This document shows positions 2,411 through 14,373 of a stretch of 64,000 nt of DNA, piece by piece. Location: the IMG/VR virus record IMGVR_UViG_2881155292_000002; one strand, 5' to 3'. The notes below the pieces were generated by a model. That model was not told the DNA's origin. It saw only the letters and a program-made list of their open reading frames with translations, and ran no database searches. This DNA comes from a virus. Made by a program: the position numbers and the translations under genes. Each line of letters starts with the position of its first letter. Position 1 is the first letter of the stretch.

Positions 2411-3343
2411 ATGACCACGATCTCAGCCCAAACCATCTTGCGGAGCCGCCACTCGCAGCGACCTGACAAAGTTCTCTCGACGCTCCTTCTGCGCTACCCG
2501 CGCTGGATCCACGCTGAGCTGATGACCCACCGTCAGCTCAGCCGCAACGCCGCCTCCTCCCGGGCGATTCCTGTTGCCAAGTTGATCGCTGATGTTGAGA
2601 GCGATCCGGCTGTGCCCATGCACTGGGGAGCGAACCAGAAGGGAATGCAGGCCAATGCGGAGACCGATACCAAGGTCTCCAATTGGGCCTTTGCCGGCAT
2701 GGGACCGAAGCTCGCCAATGACAGAGCCTGGCTCCAGGCCAAGAATACAGCAGTTGCCGCGGCGAAGTCCTTTGCCAAGGCCGGCTATCACAAGCAGATC
2801 GTGAATCGGCTCCTGGAGCCTTTCGCCCACATTACCGTGCTTGCCTCGGCAACCGAGTGGTCGAACTTCATCGCGCTGCGGGACCATTCTGCAGCCGAAC
2901 CGCATATCCAGATCCTGGCTCGTGAGATCAAGCGAGAGCTCGATCGGACGGACAACATCAACCATTTGCTGCCTGGCATGTGGCATCTGCCTTTCCGCAC
3001 CGAAGAGTGGGGGAACCAGCGGCTGAACGGCGACGAGTACGAGATCGCTCTTAAGCGCGAGATCGCCCGCTCAGTCGCCTGCTGTGCCTCGACCTCCTAC
3101 AAGACGGTCGATGGCTTCGACATGACCTATGACAGGGCCATCGATCTGCATGACAAGCTGGTCGGCTCCACGCCGCTACATGCTTCGCCAGCCGAACACG
3201 TCGCTCAGGCTGACCGGTGGGATCCAGGCAGCTGGGGCAAGGAGGCAATCAAGGATGAGCTCGGCTGGGAAAACCCTGAGCAGCATAAAAATTTCGTTGG
3301 ATTTAGGCAGTATAGGGCCATGCTTCCAAATGAGTGTCTGTAA
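2411..3343 (+). CDS. thyX: flavin-dependent thymidylate synthase (ThyX/Thy1-like, N4-type)
   Basis: ThyX-like motif 'ELMTHRQLSRNAASSRAIP'; C-terminal 'HASPAEHVA' and 'NFVGFRQYR' recalled as typical of N4-like Thy1 proteins. Confidence 0.85.
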   Translation: MTTISAQTILRSRHSQRPDKVLSTLLLRYPRWIHAELMTHRQLSRNAASSRAIPVAKLIADVESDPAVPMHWGANQKGMQANAETDTKVSNWAFAGMGPKLANDRAWLQAKNTAVAAAKSFAKAGYHKQIVNRLLEPFAHITVLASATEWSNFIALRDHSAAEPHIQILAREIKRELDRTDNINHLLPGMWHLPFRTEEWGNQRLNGDEYEIALKREIARSVACCASTSYKTVDGFDMTYDRAIDLHDKLVGSTPLHASPAEHVAQADRWDPGSWGKEAIKDELGWENPEQHKNFVGFRQYRAMLPNECL

Positions 3344-3863
3344 GAACGGTCACGACGGTCCTCGTCGCAACAATGGGAATTGCATTGAGTGCGAAAAGGT
3401 CCGTTATAAAACCAGCGAGAAGAAGCGTACCTATCAAAAGGAAAACAGCCGTCAAAGGCGAGAGCGAGTTCGAAATGATCCACTTCTCAATGACGCGCAA
3501 CGGAAATACATGAAAGATTACCGGGAGGCGAATAAGGAACGCCTCGCGGTTTCGCAGTCCGAATATCAAAAACGTCCGGATGTGGCAGCACGATTTCGCT
3601 TAAAGCGAAAAGGCATTGACCCCACTGAACTCTCCCAGATCGTCTTGGAGGCGCAGACGTGTCAAATCTGTAATGGACCGCCGGATGGGAGATGGGAAAC
3701 CTTGCATGTCGACCACTGCCACGAGACCGGGGGTTTCAGAGGCATGATCTGTCATTCGTGCAATTCTGGGTTGGCTCGTTTCAAGGACAACCCAGACATC
3801 ATGCGGGCCGCAGCGGCCTATATCGAGCAATACAGGAAACAGCTCCCAAATGAGTGCCTTTGA
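3330..3863 (+). CDS. endonuclease VII-family (HNH-like) free-standing homing endonuclease
   Basis: 'CQIC...LHVDHCHETGGFRGMICHSCNSGLARFKDNPDIM' is the recombination endonuclease VII signature. ATG at 3330 overlaps the thyX end; lower GC than the flanks. Confidence 0.85.
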   Translation: MSVCKNGHDGPRRNNGNCIECEKVRYKTSEKKRTYQKENSRQRRERVRNDPLLNDAQRKYMKDYREANKERLAVSQSEYQKRPDVAARFRLKRKGIDPTELSQIVLEAQTCQICNGPPDGRWETLHVDHCHETGGFRGMICHSCNSGLARFKDNPDIMRAAAAYIEQYRKQLPNECL

Positions 3864-3935
3864 AAATCCCTAATTCTACAAAACAAAATCCGGAGAAAAT
3901 GATTCGCGAGCGGTGTCAATATAAATTGCTCGCGT

Positions 3936-3951
3936 CCACATTAAAATGTGG
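3936..3951. promoter_or_regulatory. palindromic operator candidate CCACA-N6-TGTGG (copy 1)
   Basis: ccacattaaaatgtgg; the same architecture recurs at 10201 and 56469, all intergenic. Confidence 0.55.
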
Positions 3952-4142
3952 ATTTTTCGTGATTAAGGGATTGTAAACGACCCGGAAATGGGTTTTCATC
4001 ATCGCAGTTCTGGTGACACAGTCAGAGCGAGGAGCTGGTAAGTCCTTGAGACTTCTGGCATTTTGCGGCGTCTAGCTTTCTTGACCCACTGCGAGACGGC
4101 ACATTCTTGTCACACGGACTAAACCTTCTGGAGGGTTTTGGG

Positions 4143-4195
4143 TCCCTCGTTCGCCTGGTCCGATCAACCGTGGCGAACGGGGGATTTGTTTTCTT
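4143..4195 (+). terminator. 13-bp hairpin with T-rich tail
   Basis: tccctcgttcgcc / ggcgaacggggga followed by tttgttttctt. Confidence 0.55.
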
Positions 4196-4272: not shown

Positions 4273-4587
4273 ATGGCCGCCAGATATAAAAGAAAAGCAG
4301 ACGATACGGAGATCGTGAGGCTCAACAACATCGGCCTGTCGCTCACCAGCATCGGAGAACGGCTCGGCGTGCATCACACGACGGTCAAATACCGCCTGGA
4401 CGCGCTTGGCATTCCCCCGGCAGACACCCGCCGGGCATTCATGGAGGACATCTTCAGTGCCCTGCCTGTCTCACAGCAGGAATGGTTGATGAACCAGTTG
4501 GGACCTGGACACACGGTCAAGGACTTCGTCAGGTCACTGTTGATCAAAGAATTCATGGGTCGGGCGGCGCCGATCACTGAATCCTGA
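4273..4587 (+). CDS. helix-turn-helix DNA-binding protein (N4-like, upstream of helicase)
   Basis: 'GLSLTSIGERLGVHHTTVKYRL' is a classic HTH; position matches N4-like synteny. Confidence 0.8.
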   Translation: MAARYKRKADDTEIVRLNNIGLSLTSIGERLGVHHTTVKYRLDALGIPPADTRRAFMEDIFSALPVSQQEWLMNQLGPGHTVKDFVRSLLIKEFMGRAAPITES

Positions 4588-4737: not shown

Positions 4738-5352
4738 ATGAGTGAGCAAGCTACGGGTGAGGCGCCAACTGCCCTCACCCCACGTTTGGTCTTCGACAAA
4801 GCTCTCGTGGAGGAGTCCGTTCCGGCCTTCCTCCGCAAGGAACGTGGCGAGCCGCGGGAACCAGGGGATCCGGAGAAGCCCATCGTCGTTCAAGAGCCTG
4901 AAGTCGCCGCCGCGGTGACCGAACCCGTCAATCACCAGTCTGAAGATCGGCTGGAAGATCTGGTTGAGGCGCCGGCAGAAATCACCGAAGAGGTGTCGGC
5001 TCCCGAAGCCGATGCCGAAGCCAGGGAAGAGGATCCCATCGAGGGCCAGAACCTGGACGAACTGTCGGTCGAAGATCTGCAGCGTCAGCAGGAGGAGATC
5101 AACCGCAAGATCCAGGAGAAGCGCCAGGCTGAGAAGCAGAGCGTCATTGCCCAGATCGTCGAGGTGGTCAACACCTACAAGATCCCGGTCGACGAACTCG
5201 TCGAAGCCCTGGGCGGCCTGAAGGTCAAGCGCAAGGGCGTCAAGGCCAAGCCGAAGTACCAGGATCCGGTCTCCGGAGCCATCTGGTCCGGCCGCGGCAA
5301 GGAGCCTGCCTGGATCAAGGGCAAGAACCGAGCTCCCTTCGAGATCAAGTAA
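4738..5352 (+). CDS. hns: H-NS family nucleoid-associated protein with acidic N-terminal extension
   Basis: C-terminal 'KPKYQDPVSGAIWSGRGKEPAWI' matches the H-NS DNA-binding motif (TWSGRGRxPxW), preceded by a coiled-coil oligomerisation segment. Confidence 0.85.
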   Translation: MSEQATGEAPTALTPRLVFDKALVEESVPAFLRKERGEPREPGDPEKPIVVQEPEVAAAVTEPVNHQSEDRLEDLVEAPAEITEEVSAPEADAEAREEDPIEGQNLDELSVEDLQRQQEEINRKIQEKRQAEKQSVIAQIVEVVNTYKIPVDELVEALGGLKVKRKGVKAKPKYQDPVSGAIWSGRGKEPAWIKGKNRAPFEIK

Positions 5353-7399: not shown

Positions 7400-10150
7400 A
7401 TGCGGTATTTGACCCTCGGCTCCGAGGAACGGAGCTCCTATCGAATTTGCATTCTCGTCAACGATATCCGAAAGGATGAGATCCTCAAGCACTACATCAA
7501 GCCCTATGGCCTCAGCGAGGCCGAGATCATCGTCATCGATCTGCACCAGGCTCCGGGCAAGAAGAAGACGCCGGCGGCCGAGATGAAGGCCTACATCCAG
7601 GAGGAGCTGGCTCCGACTCTTGCCGACCTCAACGTCAAGTACCTGCTCGTCGCCGATGGTGAGTATTTCAAGACTTTCACCAAGGCCAAGACGGTCGACA
7701 AGGCGATCGGCTATGTGCTCGACACCGAGTTCGGCGACTGGAAGGTCGCCTACGTGCCCAACTACCGCACGGTCTTCTACGATCCGGTCAAGGTGACCCA
7801 GAAGATCGAGCTCGGCATCAATGCGCTGAAGAGCTGGCGGACCGGCACCTACCGGGATCCAGGCGTCGACATCATCAAGTTCGCCGAATATCCCCAGACC
7901 ATCGAAGAGATCAGCGACTGGCTAGATCGTCTCCTGGAGATGGACAAGGATCTGGCGATTGACATCGAGGGCTTCTCGCTGAAGCACTACGATTGCGGTA
8001 TCGGCACGATCTCGTTCGCCTGGTCGAAGACCGAAGGCATCGCCTTCCCGGTCGACTACGAACCCATCCCCGGCGCCACGGAAGCGCCATTCGGCCGCAA
8101 CGTCAGGAATGAACTGGTCCGAGCACTGCTCCGGGAGTTCTTCCGCAAATATCTGCGCAAGGCGGTTTATCACAACATCGCCTTCGACGTTTACGTCCTG
8201 ATCTACCAGCTGTTCATGGATGACCTGCTCGACAACGAGGGGCTCCTGCGCGGCCTGGAGATCATGCTCCGCAACTGGGACGACACCAAGCTCATCTCCT
8301 ACCTGGCTACCAACAGCTGCGCCGGCAACCGGCTCAGCCTCAAGGACCAGGCCCAGGAGTACGCTGGCGACTATGCCCAGGAGGAGATCAAGGACATCAC
8401 CAAAATACCCCTGCCGCAGCTCCTCCAGTACAACCTGGTCGACGCTCTCGGCACCTGGTTCGTTCATGAGAAGAACCACCCGAAGATGGTCGCTGACCAG
8501 CAAATTGACATCTACGAAACCATCTTCAAACCAGCCATCGTGGACATCGTCCAGATGCAGCTCACCGGAATGCCGATGGACATCGAGCAGGTGAAGCTGG
8601 TCAATCAGGCGCTGGAAGGCATCCGTGGTGATGCCTCAGATCGGATGCTTCAGCTGCCAATCATCCGAAAGTTCGAGTACATGCGCCTCGAAGCCTACAC
8701 GAATCTCAAGAATTCCGAGTGGGTTAAGAAGCGCATGACCATTGCAGAAATGGCTCAGCTCGCCCAGGAGAGCGAAAACGTCCGCAAGGAGGTGACGTTC
8801 AATCCGAATTCGGGCAATCAGCTGCAGCAGCTTCTCTACGAGGTTATCGGTCTTCCTGTCATTGATTATACCGATAACAAGCAGCCCGCCACCGGTGGCA
8901 AAACCCTCAAGAAACTCGTAAATCACACCTCGGATCCAGAGGTGAAGAATTTGCTCGAAGCGCTCATGGACTTCATGGCGGTCGAGACGATCCTCACCAA
9001 CTTCATGCCACACTTTCTCAATGCGCGGCTGGGTCCGGATGGTTGGCATTGGCTCTTTGGATTCTTCAATCTTGGCGGAACCGTCTCAGGACGGTTGTCG
9101 TCGAGCAAGGTGAATCTCCAGAACCTGCCGGCCAACGTCGACATGGCTTTGTCGGAAGCCTTGCTGGCGAAATTCCCGATCCTGGCACCGTTCGTAAAAG
9201 ACGGAAAGCTTAGTCTTGGGAAGTTCATCAAGAGCTGCTTTGTGGCACCTCCAGGCTGGTTCTTCTGTGGCATCGACTTCGCCTCACTAGAGGACCGGAT
9301 CTCGGCACTCACCACGAAGGACCCGAACAAGCTTAAGGTTTACACCGATGGCTACGACGGCCATTCAATGAGAGCTTATGCTTATTTCGGCGATCAGATG
9401 CCCGACATCGTGGATACGGTGGAGAGCATCAACACGATGGCTGATAAGGACCACGAGAACAGCAAGAAATATGGACCTCTTCGACAGGAATCGAAGACAC
9501 CTACGTTCCTGCTGACCTATGGCGGCACCTACATCGGCATCATGCAGCAGCTCGGCTGGGACGAGGCAAAGGCCAAATCGGTCGAGTCCAGCTACCATGA
9601 ACTCTACAAGGTCTCCGACGACTGGGTGAAAGCCAAGATCGTCCAGGCTTGCAAAGATGGATATGTCACCGCGGCCTTCGGGCTTAGGGTCAGGACGCCA
9701 ATGCTTCACCAGGTCGTGCTGGGCACTTCCAAGACGCCTTTCCAGGCTGAAGCGGAGGGCAGGACGGCCGGCAATGCATTGGGACAGTCCTGGTGCCTGC
9801 TCAATTCCCGAGCAGGCTCCGAGACCATGAGTCAGGTCAGGAAGAGCGAGTTCAAACACTCGATCAAGCCCTGCGCCCAGATCCACGATGCCCAATACTA
9901 TCTGGCCCGGGACAACGTCGACGTCATCGAACGCCTCAACAAGTGGGTGGTGAAAGCCTGTCAGTGGCAGAACCATCCCGACATCTGGCACGACGAGGTG
10001 AAGCTTGGTGGCGAGTTCGGTATTTTCTACCCGAACTGGAGCCATGAGGCAGTTATCCCCAACGATGCTACATCGTCGGAAATCTACGCCGCCTTCGAAA
10101 AGCACATCCACAAGCTGAACGGAAAACCAGCTCAAAAGCTTGCTGCATAA
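7400..10150 (+). CDS. family A DNA polymerase (N4 gp39-like)
   Basis: Exonuclease 'DIEG', 'GRLSSSKVNLQNLP', motif A 'DFASLE', motif B 'RQESKTPTFLLTYGG', motif C 'QIHDA'. Confidence 0.95.
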   Translation: MRYLTLGSEERSSYRICILVNDIRKDEILKHYIKPYGLSEAEIIVIDLHQAPGKKKTPAAEMKAYIQEELAPTLADLNVKYLLVADGEYFKTFTKAKTVDKAIGYVLDTEFGDWKVAYVPNYRTVFYDPVKVTQKIELGINALKSWRTGTYRDPGVDIIKFAEYPQTIEEISDWLDRLLEMDKDLAIDIEGFSLKHYDCGIGTISFAWSKTEGIAFPVDYEPIPGATEAPFGRNVRNELVRALLREFFRKYLRKAVYHNIAFDVYVLIYQLFMDDLLDNEGLLRGLEIMLRNWDDTKLISYLATNSCAGNRLSLKDQAQEYAGDYAQEEIKDITKIPLPQLLQYNLVDALGTWFVHEKNHPKMVADQQIDIYETIFKPAIVDIVQMQLTGMPMDIEQVKLVNQALEGIRGDASDRMLQLPIIRKFEYMRLEAYTNLKNSEWVKKRMTIAEMAQLAQESENVRKEVTFNPNSGNQLQQLLYEVIGLPVIDYTDNKQPATGGKTLKKLVNHTSDPEVKNLLEALMDFMAVETILTNFMPHFLNARLGPDGWHWLFGFFNLGGTVSGRLSSSKVNLQNLPANVDMALSEALLAKFPILAPFVKDGKLSLGKFIKSCFVAPPGWFFCGIDFASLEDRISALTTKDPNKLKVYTDGYDGHSMRAYAYFGDQMPDIVDTVESINTMADKDHENSKKYGPLRQESKTPTFLLTYGGTYIGIMQQLGWDEAKAKSVESSYHELYKVSDDWVKAKIVQACKDGYVTAAFGLRVRTPMLHQVVLGTSKTPFQAEAEGRTAGNALGQSWCLLNSRAGSETMSQVRKSEFKHSIKPCAQIHDAQYYLARDNVDVIERLNKWVVKACQWQNHPDIWHDEVKLGGEFGIFYPNWSHEAVIPNDATSSEIYAAFEKHIHKLNGKPAQKLAA

Positions 10151-11240: not shown

Positions 11241-12224
11241 ATGCGCCTGACAAATGTACACGGCCTTAGCTTGCCGTTGGCGGTTTGGCTGCTCCACGAT
11301 GAGTACGACTACATCGACGAGCCCAATTACATCTCGGCCACCAGCCTGCTGAAAAGCACCCGCCAGCTGGTCCTGTCGCGCCGGGTGAACCATGAAGAGA
11401 GGGAGGTCGACATCTCGGCTTTCCTGGCTTCCAGCATGGGAACCGCCATCCACGATTCGATCGAGAAGGCGTGGACCAAGTCCGGCCGCTGGGCGATGAA
11501 GAAGCTGGGCTACCCGGACCACATCGCCGAGAACATCTGCGTCAACCCGTCCGAGGAACAGCTGCTCGCCAACACGGCGCTGATCCCGGTGTGGATGGAA
11601 CAGCGGGCCTTCCGCGATATCACGGTCAACGGCGTCACCTACAAGATCGGTGGCAAGTTCGACCTGGTTCTCCAGGGACGCCTGTTCGACGCCAAGTCGA
11701 CTTCGGTGTTCGCCTATCTCCTGGGTCGCAAGGACCAGGACTACGCGCTCCAGGGCGGCATCTATCGCTGGCTCAATCCTGAGCTCATCACCGACGAGCA
11801 CATCTTCATCCAGTTCATCTTCACGGACTGGCAGAAGGCCCGAGCCCGTGGTGATGCGGATTATCCGCAGACCAAGGCGATCGAGTATCCGGTGCTCATG
11901 CCCTCCCTGGAGGAGACCGAGCGGTTCATCCGGAACAAGCTCACCGAGATCCAGAAATACGCCAACTCGCCGGACGAGGAGATCCCCTACTGCACCGACA
12001 AGGAGCTGTGGCGCGGAGAGACCGTCTACAAATATTACTCGGACCCGAGCAAGACCAGCGGCCGATCCACCAAGAACTTCGACGACAAGTCCGAAGCCCA
12101 TGCCTTCATGGCATCCAAGGGCGGCAAGGGCATCGTTGTCGCAGTCGCCGGTGAGGTCAAGGCTTGCGAATGGTGCCCGGCGTTCAATGCCTGCAAGCAA
12201 AAGGATCAATACTTTGTCTCTTGA
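11241..12224 (+). CDS. PD-(D/E)xK nuclease (N4 gp42-like, RecB/Cas4-like fold)
   Basis: 'SATSLLKSTRQ', 'GTAIHDSIE', 'GGKFDLVLQGRLFDAKST', C-terminal C-x2-C...C. Confidence 0.8.
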   Translation: MRLTNVHGLSLPLAVWLLHDEYDYIDEPNYISATSLLKSTRQLVLSRRVNHEEREVDISAFLASSMGTAIHDSIEKAWTKSGRWAMKKLGYPDHIAENICVNPSEEQLLANTALIPVWMEQRAFRDITVNGVTYKIGGKFDLVLQGRLFDAKSTSVFAYLLGRKDQDYALQGGIYRWLNPELITDEHIFIQFIFTDWQKARARGDADYPQTKAIEYPVLMPSLEETERFIRNKLTEIQKYANSPDEEIPYCTDKELWRGETVYKYYSDPSKTSGRSTKNFDDKSEAHAFMASKGGKGIVVAVAGEVKACEWCPAFNACKQKDQYFVS

Positions 12225-14373
12225 CCTCTCAACCGTCGATCACCATCCGGCCCTGGAGGAGATCGTCGATATCCTTTGCTCGAAGACCCAGAACACCGAC
12301 CGCGGCTTCTTCCGGACCGAGGTCGCCTACTTCATGGGCAAGATGGCATCGACCATGCGGGCCACGATCCAGACCAAGGACCGTGGCGAGATGCCGGTGA
12401 ACATCTATGCGCTCGCCCTGGCCACTTCCGGCTACGGCAAGGGCCACTCGGTCGGCATCATGGAGGAGGAATTCCTCAAGGGCTTCAAGACCCGCTTCAT
12501 GGAAGATACCTTCCCGGTGGTCGCCGACCAGAACCTGTGGGTGATCGCCAACAGTCGGGCTGCCCGCAACGGCACCGACCAGCAGGAGGAATACGACAAG
12601 GCTGCGAAGGAATTCCGCCAGGCCGGCGCCTATCCCTTCACCTTCGACTCCGGCACCCCGCCGGCGGTCAAGCAGCTGCGCCAGAAGCTCCTGATGGCCA
12701 CCTGTGGCTCAGTCAACCTGCAGATCGATGAGATCGGCTCGAACCTGCTGCAGAACGCCGAGCTGCTGATCCTGTTCCTGGAGCTCTACGACCAGGGCCT
12801 GGTCAAGCAGAAGCTGACCAAGAACACGGCCGAGAACCAGCGGGCCGAGGACATGGAAGGCAAGACGCCGACCAACATGCTGCTCTTCGGAACGCCGTCG
12901 AAGCTGTTCGATGGATCCAAGACCGAGGAGGAGTTCTATTCCTTTCTCGAGACCGGCTATGCCCGTCGCTGCCTGTTCGGCTACGGCGTGCAGAACAGCC
13001 GTGCCCACCAGAACCAGACGGCGGAAGAGGTCTTCAAGTCGCTCACCCAGACGGGTGTCGATGCCGCCGTCACCAAATGGGCTCGCCACTTCTACACGCT
13101 GGCCGACCCGGCGGTGTTCGGCTGGAAGATGGAAGTCCCCGACTCGGTCTCGATCGCGGCTCTCGCCTATCGCATCGAATGCGAAAAGCAGGCCGAGAAG
13201 ATGGCCGATCATGAGGAGATCAAGAAGGCCGAGCTGTCGCACCGCTACATGAAGGCGCTCAAGCTCGCCGGCGCCTATGCCTTCGTCGATGGATCCACCG
13301 AGATCCTGATGGAGCATCTGTCATCGGCGATCAAGCTGGTCGAGGAGTCCGGGGCTGCGTTCCAGACCATCCTCAACCGCGAGAAGACCTACGTGAAGCT
13401 GGCCAAGTACATCGCCGGCATCGGCACGGAAGTCACCCATGCCGATCTCCACGAGGCCCTGCCGTTCTACAAGTCGAGCCAGGCGGCGAGGAACGAGATG
13501 ATGACCTTGGCGACAGCCTGGGGCTACAAGAAGCACATCATCATCAAGAAGTCGTTCGCCGACGGCATCGAGCTCTTCAAGGGCGAGACGCTGAAGGAGA
13601 CTGACCTCGACAAGATCGTCGTCTCCTACTCGAACCACTGGGCCTACAACTACCTGCCCGAGGAGGTGCCGTTCGACAAGCTGCACATCCTCACCCAGAC
13701 GGCCGACTTCCACTGGGCGAACCACCACTTCAAGGGCGGTCACCGCTCGGAGGAGAACGTGCTGGCTGGCTTCAACATGATCGCCATCGACGTCGACGGC
13801 GGGGCTTCGCTCCATCAGGCTCACGAGCTGATGAAGGAGTTCAAGTTCCTCACCTACACGACCAAGCGTCATTGCGACGAGGAGAACCGCTTCCGGCTGA
13901 TGATGCCGATCAACTACCGCCTCGAGCTCGACCACGACGAATACAAGGAGTTCATGAACAACATCATGGACTGGCTACCGTTTGCGACCGACGAGTCGGC
14001 CAACCAGCGAGCCAAGAAGTGGGAAAGCTTCGCCGGCGGGCAACATCACTACAACCTGGAGGGCGAGATCCTCGACGTGCTGAACTTCATCCCGAAGACC
14101 AGCCGGAACGAGCTCTACAAGAAGTCGAGCCAGGACCTTGGTTCCCTCGACAACCTGGAACGCTGGTTCGCCTCCAGGATCGCCACCGGCAACCGCAACA
14201 ACCAGATGATCAAGTACGCCCTGTGCCTGGTCGATGCTGGTTGGGATCTGCCAGCGGTGCAGGCCCAGGTGCATGCGTTCAACAAGAAACTGTCGGACAG
14301 CATGACCGAGCAGGAGATCGATTCTACAATTTTGGTCACCGTGGCGAAACGCTTTCAACAGCAAAACGCATGA
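12214..14373 (+). CDS. DNA primase (N4 gp43-like)
   Basis: TTG start at 12214 after AAGGA; 'SGYGKGHS', 'QIDEIGSNL', 'IDVDGG', 'YTTKRH', C-terminal 'GNRNNQM' PriCT-like region. Confidence 0.9.
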   Translation: MSLDLSTVDHHPALEEIVDILCSKTQNTDRGFFRTEVAYFMGKMASTMRATIQTKDRGEMPVNIYALALATSGYGKGHSVGIMEEEFLKGFKTRFMEDTFPVVADQNLWVIANSRAARNGTDQQEEYDKAAKEFRQAGAYPFTFDSGTPPAVKQLRQKLLMATCGSVNLQIDEIGSNLLQNAELLILFLELYDQGLVKQKLTKNTAENQRAEDMEGKTPTNMLLFGTPSKLFDGSKTEEEFYSFLETGYARRCLFGYGVQNSRAHQNQTAEEVFKSLTQTGVDAAVTKWARHFYTLADPAVFGWKMEVPDSVSIAALAYRIECEKQAEKMADHEEIKKAELSHRYMKALKLAGAYAFVDGSTEILMEHLSSAIKLVEESGAAFQTILNREKTYVKLAKYIAGIGTEVTHADLHEALPFYKSSQAARNEMMTLATAWGYKKHIIIKKSFADGIELFKGETLKETDLDKIVVSYSNHWAYNYLPEEVPFDKLHILTQTADFHWANHHFKGGHRSEENVLAGFNMIAIDVDGGASLHQAHELMKEFKFLTYTTKRHCDEENRFRLMMPINYRLELDHDEYKEFMNNIMDWLPFATDESANQRAKKWESFAGGQHHYNLEGEILDVLNFIPKTSRNELYKKSSQDLGSLDNLERWFASRIATGNRNNQMIKYALCLVDAGWDLPAVQAQVHAFNKKLSDSMTEQEIDSTILVTVAKRFQQQNA

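Follow-up and report, generated by a model that had tools for sequence, protein, structure and literature searches.

A probable homing-endonuclease cassette that replaces and displaces the 3' end of thyX in an N4-like prophage

Why should an endonuclease gene that follows thyX in a phage genome end in a second copy of the thyX terminus? The question is raised by a 64,000-nucleotide stretch of viral DNA (IMG/VR record IMGVR_UViG_2881155292_000002; below, the window) from an N4-like prophage, in which thyX, the gene of a flavin-dependent thymidylate synthase, is followed by an overlapping open reading frame (ORF) for a free-standing endonuclease of the endonuclease VII (Endo VII) or DHHRN type. 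The last codons of that ORF repeat those of thyX. The reading we favor, with a probability of about 80%, is that the 3' end of thyX has received a mobile homing-endonuclease cassette consisting of a foreign thyX 3' end and the endonuclease gene. The coordinates of the features are collected in Table 1.

The two tail copies, of which copy 1 is the thyX end in use and copy 2 the end of the endonuclease ORF, start 520 nucleotides (nt) apart and form the longest direct repeat that a repeat finder reports for the region; it is 40 nt long at 70% identity, and 11 nt at its core (CCAAATGAGTG) are the same in both copies. Re-reading the sequence confirmed what the initial annotation had said of their coordinates, tail sequences, and spacing, and also that copy 1 contains, out of frame, the endonuclease ATG (3330), which copy 2 keeps as the start of a 7-codon mini-ORF. 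Its further statement that the copies differ mostly at synonymous positions is right when codons are counted but not when bases are: of the 11 base differences, 5 are synonymous third positions, 5 fall in two replaced codons (GCC ATG versus AAA CAG), and 1 is in the stop codon. A six-frame scan of the window, covering about 128,000 12-mers, gave nothing above 5 of 12 identities besides the two copies, with copy 2 scoring 10 of 12. When 142 distinct thyX loci, including those retrieved through the endonuclease, were scanned independently of ORFs, six tail copies matching at 7 or more of 11 positions were found on the forward strand and none on the reverse strand. The window scan and this reverse-strand control rule out a chance resemblance of the tails. 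An assembly artefact as the source of the duplicated tail is ruled out as well, since L002 (2424 bp), which was assembled independently from short reads of the same DNA, is base-for-base identical across the overlap.

The gene product from which the tail derives is a divergent ThyX of a phage type. Pfam covers residues 8 to 178 only (PF02511, 29.5 bits against a cut-off of 24.8), and there are more than 7000 thyX homologues at 54 to 71% identity that are annotated in databases as FAD-dependent thymidylate synthase. The window gene is an intact, full-length ORF that retains all the invariant tail residues. The last 13 residues are almost invariant in the family; F298, Q300, Y301, R302, and L305 do not vary in an alignment of 20 homologues, and most of 120 homologues at 54 to 71% identity terminate in GFRQYRKMLPNECL or a near variant. 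So conserved an end makes both a good homing target and a segment that needs replacement when it is invaded. The copy 2 sequence, QYRKQLPNECL, is the natural thyX end of four homologues (P0013, P0016, P0024, and P0059), and both copies therefore look like genuine thyX ends that come from different alleles.

The endonuclease ORF matched Endonuclease_7 (PF02945) with 63.4 bits, against a cut-off of 23.6, over residues 101 to 166 of 177, and also phrog_2914 and phrog_2633, both described as "endonuclease VII." The motif is C-terminal; the N-terminal 100 residues comprise a Cys-rich start (M-S-V-C-K-N-G-H...) and helices, and the homologues begin at the equivalent position with M-x-x-C-K-N-G-H. 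In a 15-sequence alignment, C111, D128, H129, H131, R137, C141, C144, and N145 were invariant and C114 was nearly so. Identity to the Endo VII genes of cyanophages is about 29 to 37%. A C-terminal Endo VII motif marks the clade of homing and restriction endonucleases and an N-terminal one the resolvase clade (Fang et al., PMC6083498), and the arrangement of the window protein is that of the endonuclease clade, not of the resolvase clade. Its AlphaFold model has a mean pLDDT (predicted local distance difference test) of 84, with strands at residues 126 to 129 and 136 to 140 and helices at 142 to 150 and 155 to 168, while residues 169 to 177 are modeled as coil, the mean pLDDT of the last block (171 to 177) being 55. 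More distant homologues terminate within a few residues of the A-x-x-Y-L/I helix. Since the model ends in coil and the distant homologues stop early, everything beyond about residue 167 can be regarded as an appendage. The gene has no stop codon of its own and terminates at the displaced thyX stop. Its start codon is built from the Asn-Glu codons of copy 1, giving an overlap of 14 nt with thyX, and for this reason the endonuclease is probably translated by coupling to thyX. No structured RNA, either a group I intron or a member of another Rfam family, was matched around the endonuclease at an E value of ≤1, and no tRNA was found in the window.

Which of the two tails is the resident one was judged from endonuclease-free relatives. 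The N4-like loci L086, L087, and L254 are syntenic with the window (thyX, a helix-turn-helix [HTH] gene, an H-NS-like gene, and a helicase) and have no endonuclease, whose occurrence among syntenic relatives is thus sporadic. In L001, the locus of the closest endonuclease homologue, copy 2 and the DNA that follows it aligned collinearly with L086 and L087 from the end of thyX into the DNA beyond it. Here copy 2 matched at 29 to 30 of 36 nt in the tail and at 23 to 25 of the next 40 nt, compared with 20 of 36 nt and 7 to 10 of 40 nt for copy 1. For the window, the nearest endonuclease-free genes (L253 and L254) matched copy 2 at 28 of 36 nt and copy 1 at 24 to 25 of 36, and at 5 of the 6 silent or stop-codon differences between the window copies L254 has the base present in copy 2. 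Copy 2 is the resident thyX tail, displaced, and copy 1 plus the endonuclease is the insert; the case is strong for L001 and moderate for the window. Copy 1, the thyX end now in use, would accordingly have been brought in together with the endonuclease gene.

The body of the window thyX was then compared with its end. Among 117 ThyX homologues, the residue after a conserved His and the residue after Q-Y-R (codons 3287-3289 and 3317-3319 in the window) covary perfectly, H-G/A-N-F occurring with R-K/H/R/N and H-K/R-N-F with R-A. The pattern resembles an exchange of charge between two residues of the C-terminal segment that are in contact. In a tree of the thyX body (amino acids 1 to 284), the window gene falls within the clade of the HGNF...RK type (support, 0.95 to 0.96). 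Its end is of the HKNF...RA type, unlike that of its body clade, and it is copy 2 (R-K-Q) that fits the clade. Having a body of the one type and an end of the other, the window thyX looks like a hybrid and probably consists of a body of the resident lineage and a foreign 3' end. The left edge of the foreign DNA lies at or upstream of the HKNF codons near position 3284. Sliding-window identity along thyX was informative for the last 40 residues only; the tree and the covariation were usable. No near-identical empty site was found against which to read the exact insertion boundaries in the window.

The same architecture recurs at no fewer than seven other loci from metagenomes and viral contigs (L001, L005, L006, L007, L246, L248, and L251). 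The closest endonuclease homologue, P0122 on L001, is 61% identical and occupies the same position at the thyX end; thyX of L001 ends in GFRQYRKQLPNECL and the endonuclease in AAAYLEKYRKMLPGECQ, each followed by the stop codon, and the Asn-Glu codons again provide the endonuclease ATG. A full HMMER search of 1.8 billion representatives yielded further Endo VII proteins with thyX-like tails at about 34 to 49% identity (P0132, P0133, P0137, P0138, P0139, P0141, P0164, P0232, and P0234). Wherever enough flanking DNA was available, the endonuclease ORF directly follows thyX with an overlap of 4 to 29 nt. At each of the seven loci the copy resembles the neighboring thyX tail in features peculiar to the lineage, such as LEI/LEI, ...HHS/...YHSS, ...YFRG/...CFTG, and KGEYVN/KGEYVL. 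The thyX tail and the endonuclease end read IQFRKTLEI and IQHRKLLEI in L006, QQYRKMIPEECVYG and IQNRKTVPGESMPG in L246, IQFRKTIPGEHHS... and IQARKLIPNEYHSS in L248, IQFRKTVDGEYFRG and GQFRKTVPGECFTG in L251, and ...KNECQ and ...GDCQ in L005; in L007, the thyX tail RKTLKGEYVN has a copy, RKQLKGEYVL, in a frame other than that of the endonuclease. The junction between insert and old tail, A-x-x-Y-L-x followed by Q-Y/F-R-K, is the same in most loci. The downstream neighbors vary with the locus (the HTH gene in the N4-like phages, a DNA ligase, a thioredoxin, or a ParA-like gene), which ties the endonuclease to thyX itself and not to one phage backbone. When loci were retrieved through thyX, 1 of about 150 with a readable gene end carried the endonuclease (L137, on the same contig as L005).

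A related endonuclease was also found behind another gene. In L038, it follows a metallophosphoesterase gene that ends in ...NVQFRGQIINV, and the endonuclease itself ends in ...LLQFRGGIIKV. Endonuclease-free homologues of this phosphoesterase end in ...EFRGQVYDVSAL and ...VFRGKIVEV, with the shared pattern ...FRGxI..V, so the tail is native to the phosphoesterase gene. The comparison shows, at the level of sequence, that the tail carried by the endonuclease is that of the gene invaded, whether thyX or another. Some thyX tails, for instance CAA TTC AGA AAA, are similar to the L038 site (CAA TTT AGA), and this likeness gives a hint of the route by which the jump to the phosphoesterase may have been made. 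These relatives bear directly on the initial annotation, which had proposed that the endonuclease invaded the thyX 3' end, supplied a replacement end, and became fused in frame to the old tail. The collinearity of copy 2 supports that proposal. It had also expected endonuclease-free relatives to favor one of the copies, and L086, L087, L253, and L254 do match copy 2 better; and it had expected Endo VII homologues away from thyX to lack the thyX tail, which they do, the one behind the phosphoesterase carrying the tail of that gene.

Several loci depart from the common arrangement. The L007 endonuclease (2417-2905) has a shortened catalytic stretch, RGMLCCNHAIG, and a stop of its own (...YVEHYK and stop), after which the tail copy follows in another frame, matching its own thyX at 9 of 11 positions when the stop is counted with the 10 residues. 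P0134 ends in much the same way (...YVEHYR and stop). Proteins of the L007 type may represent a decaying or rearranged subclade, or the locus may hold two nested tail remnants from successive invasions. In L248 (1990-2029), the thyX stop has been lost and the ORF runs on for 8 codons into the endonuclease start (...GEHHS continued by DSAMQERS and stop), and this read-through fixes where the insert begins on the left, give or take a few bases. In two other viral contigs, small ORFs of 78 and 86 amino acids that have no nuclease motif lie directly after thyX (L110, 3354-3590, and L125, 3415-3675). The L110 ORF ends in ...LRAMIEGEVK, compared with ...LRAMLEGE in thyX, and the L125 ORF in ...DLAGECQ, compared with ...TLPGECQ. 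Neither of these tail-bearing ORFs was matched in Pfam or PHROGs; they may be decayed cassettes or other cargo that used the same entry point.

A mechanism that would produce this arrangement can be outlined. The enzyme would cut endonuclease-free thyX alleles in or near their conserved last codons, and the break would be repaired from a genome that bears the cassette. With the left crossover within thyX, the recipient would receive the thyX end of the donor and keep a functional gene, while on the right the junction would form where the recipient's tail has its Q-Y/F-R-K codons. Pushed downstream, this tail would give the endonuclease ORF its last 11 codons and stop, and copy 1 would be immune to cleavage through its recoded bases. 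That copy 1 is immune, that the cassette is still mobile, and where the enzyme would cut are all predictions from the sequence. Recombination between the copies, which the initial annotation proposed as a way to restore thyX cleanly, would have just the 11 identical bases of the core to act on. Pairwise identities of the endonucleases and of the thyX genes beside them were discordant: 52% for the endonucleases and 40% for thyX between L007 and L246, 47% and 68% between L246 and L251, and 43% and 61% between L006 and L005. These values, the variety of downstream genes, and the empty sites of the syntenic relatives jointly fit horizontal spread among thyX alleles better than one inherited insertion.

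It is also conceivable, though we would put it at somewhat under even odds, that the displaced tail is a working part of the cassette. Both homology arms, the thyX body on the left and the old tail on the right, would then lie inside the conserved thyX coding sequence, the cassette could home into any thyX regardless of what lies downstream, and copy 2 would be refreshed from each recipient. If so, this would be an intron-like invasion of a coding sequence without splicing, and it would explain both the pristine, lineage-matched tails on endonucleases that are about 40% identical and the jump to a phosphoesterase whose end resembles the thyX target (CAA TTT AGA...).

Several observations count against a mobile cassette. 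Ends of the K/A type, the minority type, arose several times in the tree, and convergence in situ is therefore possible. The nearest endonuclease-free thyX genes are just 66 to 71% identical to that of the window in protein, and the window's own case for copy 2 as the resident tail amounts to 3 to 4 extra matching bases of 36, two covarying residues, and a weak, gapped downstream similarity. Endonucleases that are 38 to 61% identical all retain a recognizable tail copy, and a pure relic would be expected to decay; this persistence demands either repeated homing or selection, and it suggests that every homing event supplies a new copy 2, or that copy 2 is kept as the right-hand homology arm. 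Finally, the N4-like trio of the window, L001, and L006 could share one old, vertically inherited insertion. In a rival explanation, the thyX end was duplicated locally in the course of a single old insertion that one N4-like lineage has since inherited vertically, the endonuclease is now an immobile passenger or domesticated, and the copies diverged in place. The synteny around thyX that the window, L001 (with the contig of P0016), and L006 have in common and the identical position of the junction in most loci agree with it, but we regard it as unlikely. Other loci of the same architecture have unrelated downstream genes, syntenic relatives in the same thyX clade lack the endonuclease, and endonuclease and thyX identities are discordant; moreover, divergence in place leaves unexplained the collinearity of copy 2 with endonuclease-free alleles and its closeness to them, as well as the foreign K/A state of copy 1.

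Persistence of the tail could alternatively mean that it is a selected, functional part of the endonuclease, for example a mimic of the ThyX C terminus that serves partner binding or co-regulation, and not a by-product of insertion. In its favor, the tail is in frame and recognizable at 8 of 9 endonuclease loci although the bodies are 38 to 61% identical. This explanation is nevertheless very unlikely in our view: the L007 endonuclease stops by itself and has its tail copy in another frame, yet that copy still matches its thyX at 9 of 11 positions; the copy in L005 is reduced to four residues; the L038 endonuclease copies a phosphoesterase and not ThyX; the small non-nuclease ORFs of L110 and L125 also end in a thyX tail; the modeled tail (residues 169 to 177) is coil, with the low confidence given above for its last block; and distant homologues stop soon after the A-x-x-Y-L helix. 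We give hardly any credence to the idea that the gene is the phage's own Holliday-junction resolvase, similar to T4 endonuclease VII, which happens to follow thyX and shares its tail by chance or artefact. Endonuclease_7 is indeed the sole domain match, and Endo VII is believed to serve as the resolvase in some podoviruses (PMC6083498), but the motif of the window protein sits C-terminally behind a Cys-rich, helical region, as in the endonuclease clade, the gene is absent from syntenic relatives, and chance and artefact are excluded by the scans and by the identical independent assembly.

A homing cassette of this build has its closest counterpart in the mORF gene hybrids of fungal mitochondria, described for atp6 of Allomyces macrogynus and for atp6, atp9, cox2, and nad3 of Glomus sp. 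(PMC3630166; see also PMC6279837). There, as in the window, a gene core is followed by an inserted foreign C terminus, an endonuclease ORF, and the displaced native C terminus; the copy that agrees with endonuclease-free relatives is the native one, the divergent copy is the inserted one, and the host gene remains whole as a hybrid. The window differs in that its host gene is a bacteriophage (prophage) thyX and not a mitochondrial gene, in that its nuclease is of the Endo VII/DHHRN type and not LAGLIDADG or GIY-YIG, and in that the duplicated segment spans just 11 to 14 codons. Some, but not all, of the mitochondrial endonucleases are in phase with the upstream host gene. That of the window begins at a separate ATG, out of frame with thyX, and shares its frame and its stop with the native tail that was displaced. 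F-CphI of the DHHRN family (cyanophage S-PM2 ORF177; PMC6083498) likewise has a C-terminal Endo VII motif with conserved D, H, H, R, and N and is a free-standing phage gene beside its presumed target gene. Unlike the window gene, it adjoins psbA and targets a group I intron insertion site, and no duplication of a gene end has been described for it; its likeness to the window protein is at the family level only. SegB, SegF, SegG, and MobE of T4-type phages, the examples of "intronless homing" (PMC2988022, PMC2330249), are also free-standing, lie by conserved genes, occur sporadically among relatives, and are presumed to spread when double-strand breaks are repaired, flanking markers being co-converted, but they are intergenic, bring no replacement end for the neighboring gene, and belong to the GIY-YIG and HNH families. 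A literature search returned no paper linking homing endonucleases to the 3' end of thyX. The initial annotation had read the locus as intronless homing caught as a footprint at a gene end. Its structural part is borne out; what has to be revised is the view of a single event, the arrangement being standard in this thyX-associated endonuclease clade, and the architecture is known already from the fungal mitochondria.

If the cassette reading is right, the "gene hybrid" mode known from mitochondria, in which an essential gene is invaded with neither an intron nor an intein, would also operate in phages, with an Endo VII-type nuclease, and would be the standing architecture of a whole endonuclease clade that targets the conserved thyX end. 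For annotation, this would mean that such endonucleases carry 9 to 14 borrowed residues and that the adjacent thyX is a recombinant whose 3' end has a history different from that of its body, by which gene trees can be misled. The natural alleles with and without the cassette would in turn let the target site of a barely studied homing-endonuclease family be read.

Table 1. Features of the window discussed in the text, with positions counted from its first nucleotide
Feature	Position	Strand	Basis or remark
thyX, flavin-dependent thymidylate synthase, 310 amino acids	2411-3343	+	PF02511 match and homologues
Tail copy 1, QYRAMLPNECL and stop, thyX end in use	3308-3343	+	Read from sequence
Free-standing homing endonuclease gene (predicted), 177 amino acids, Endo VII/DHHRN type	3330-3863	+	PF02945; PHROGs
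Endo VII catalytic (beta-beta-alpha-metal) domain, ending in helix ...AAAYIE(QYR)	3630-3827	+	Pfam, amino acids 101-166; AlphaFold model
Tail copy 2, QYRKQLPNECL and stop, last 11 codons and stop of the endonuclease	3828-3863	+	Read from sequence
Mini-ORF MSAFENP and stop, 7 codons, from ATG 3850 within copy 2	3850-3873	+	Read from sequence
Terminator-like hairpin and T-run just after the endonuclease	3934-3953	+	Stretch absent from L001, L086, and L087
Conserved intergenic element, about 150-190 nt, with terminal hairpin and T-run	4007-4192	+	Between thyX/endonuclease and HTH gene
HTH-domain gene, next backbone gene	4273-4587	+	Pfam HTH matches weak
H-NS-like gene with acidic N-terminal extension	4738-5352	+	Syntenic counterparts
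DNA polymerase	7400-10150		N4-like hallmark
Primase	near 11650-14373		N4-like hallmark
Giant ORF, 3505 amino acids	18639-29156	-	N4-like hallmark

The phage genome to which these genes belong is integrated in a complete 6.46-Mb chromosome (G000:C1, about 1,848,000-1,924,400), where it forms a low-GC island of about 76 kb (55 to 60% versus 63.7%) that ends with the gene of a 392-amino-acid tyrosine integrase (PF00589) directly beside tRNA-Arg(tct). For a long time, N4-like phages were regarded as strictly lytic. Proviruses of the N4-like kind that carry an integrase have already been reported (PMC10654107), and the window prophage is a clean example of this known kind. No close relatives of the prophage were found, the matches in the phage collection reaching about 72 to 74% nucleotide identity over the replication genes only, and a sample of 300 other genomes from the host's family yielded no thyX. 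The gene map of the 28-kb contig of P0016 has a gap of 772 bp after thyX, as does that of L001.

Downstream of the endonuclease, the conserved intergenic element contains the blocks GTTCTGGTGA, GTCAGAGC, TGCGGCGT, and GACCCA. Its terminal hairpin shows compensatory changes. The blocks and the hairpin are present in the window, L001, L086, and L087, and the element follows thyX in L086 and L087 and copy 2 in the window. Its distribution points to the resident phage backbone and not to the insert; it had no match in Rfam and may be a phage small RNA or leader. The HTH gene that comes next was 63 to 69% identical by tblastn in L086 and L087, where the H-NS-like gene and the helicase follow. The syntenic counterparts of the H-NS-like gene in L254, L255, and the contig of P0016 have a precomputed Pfam match to Histone_HNS, which makes it a conserved backbone gene of this N4-like group.

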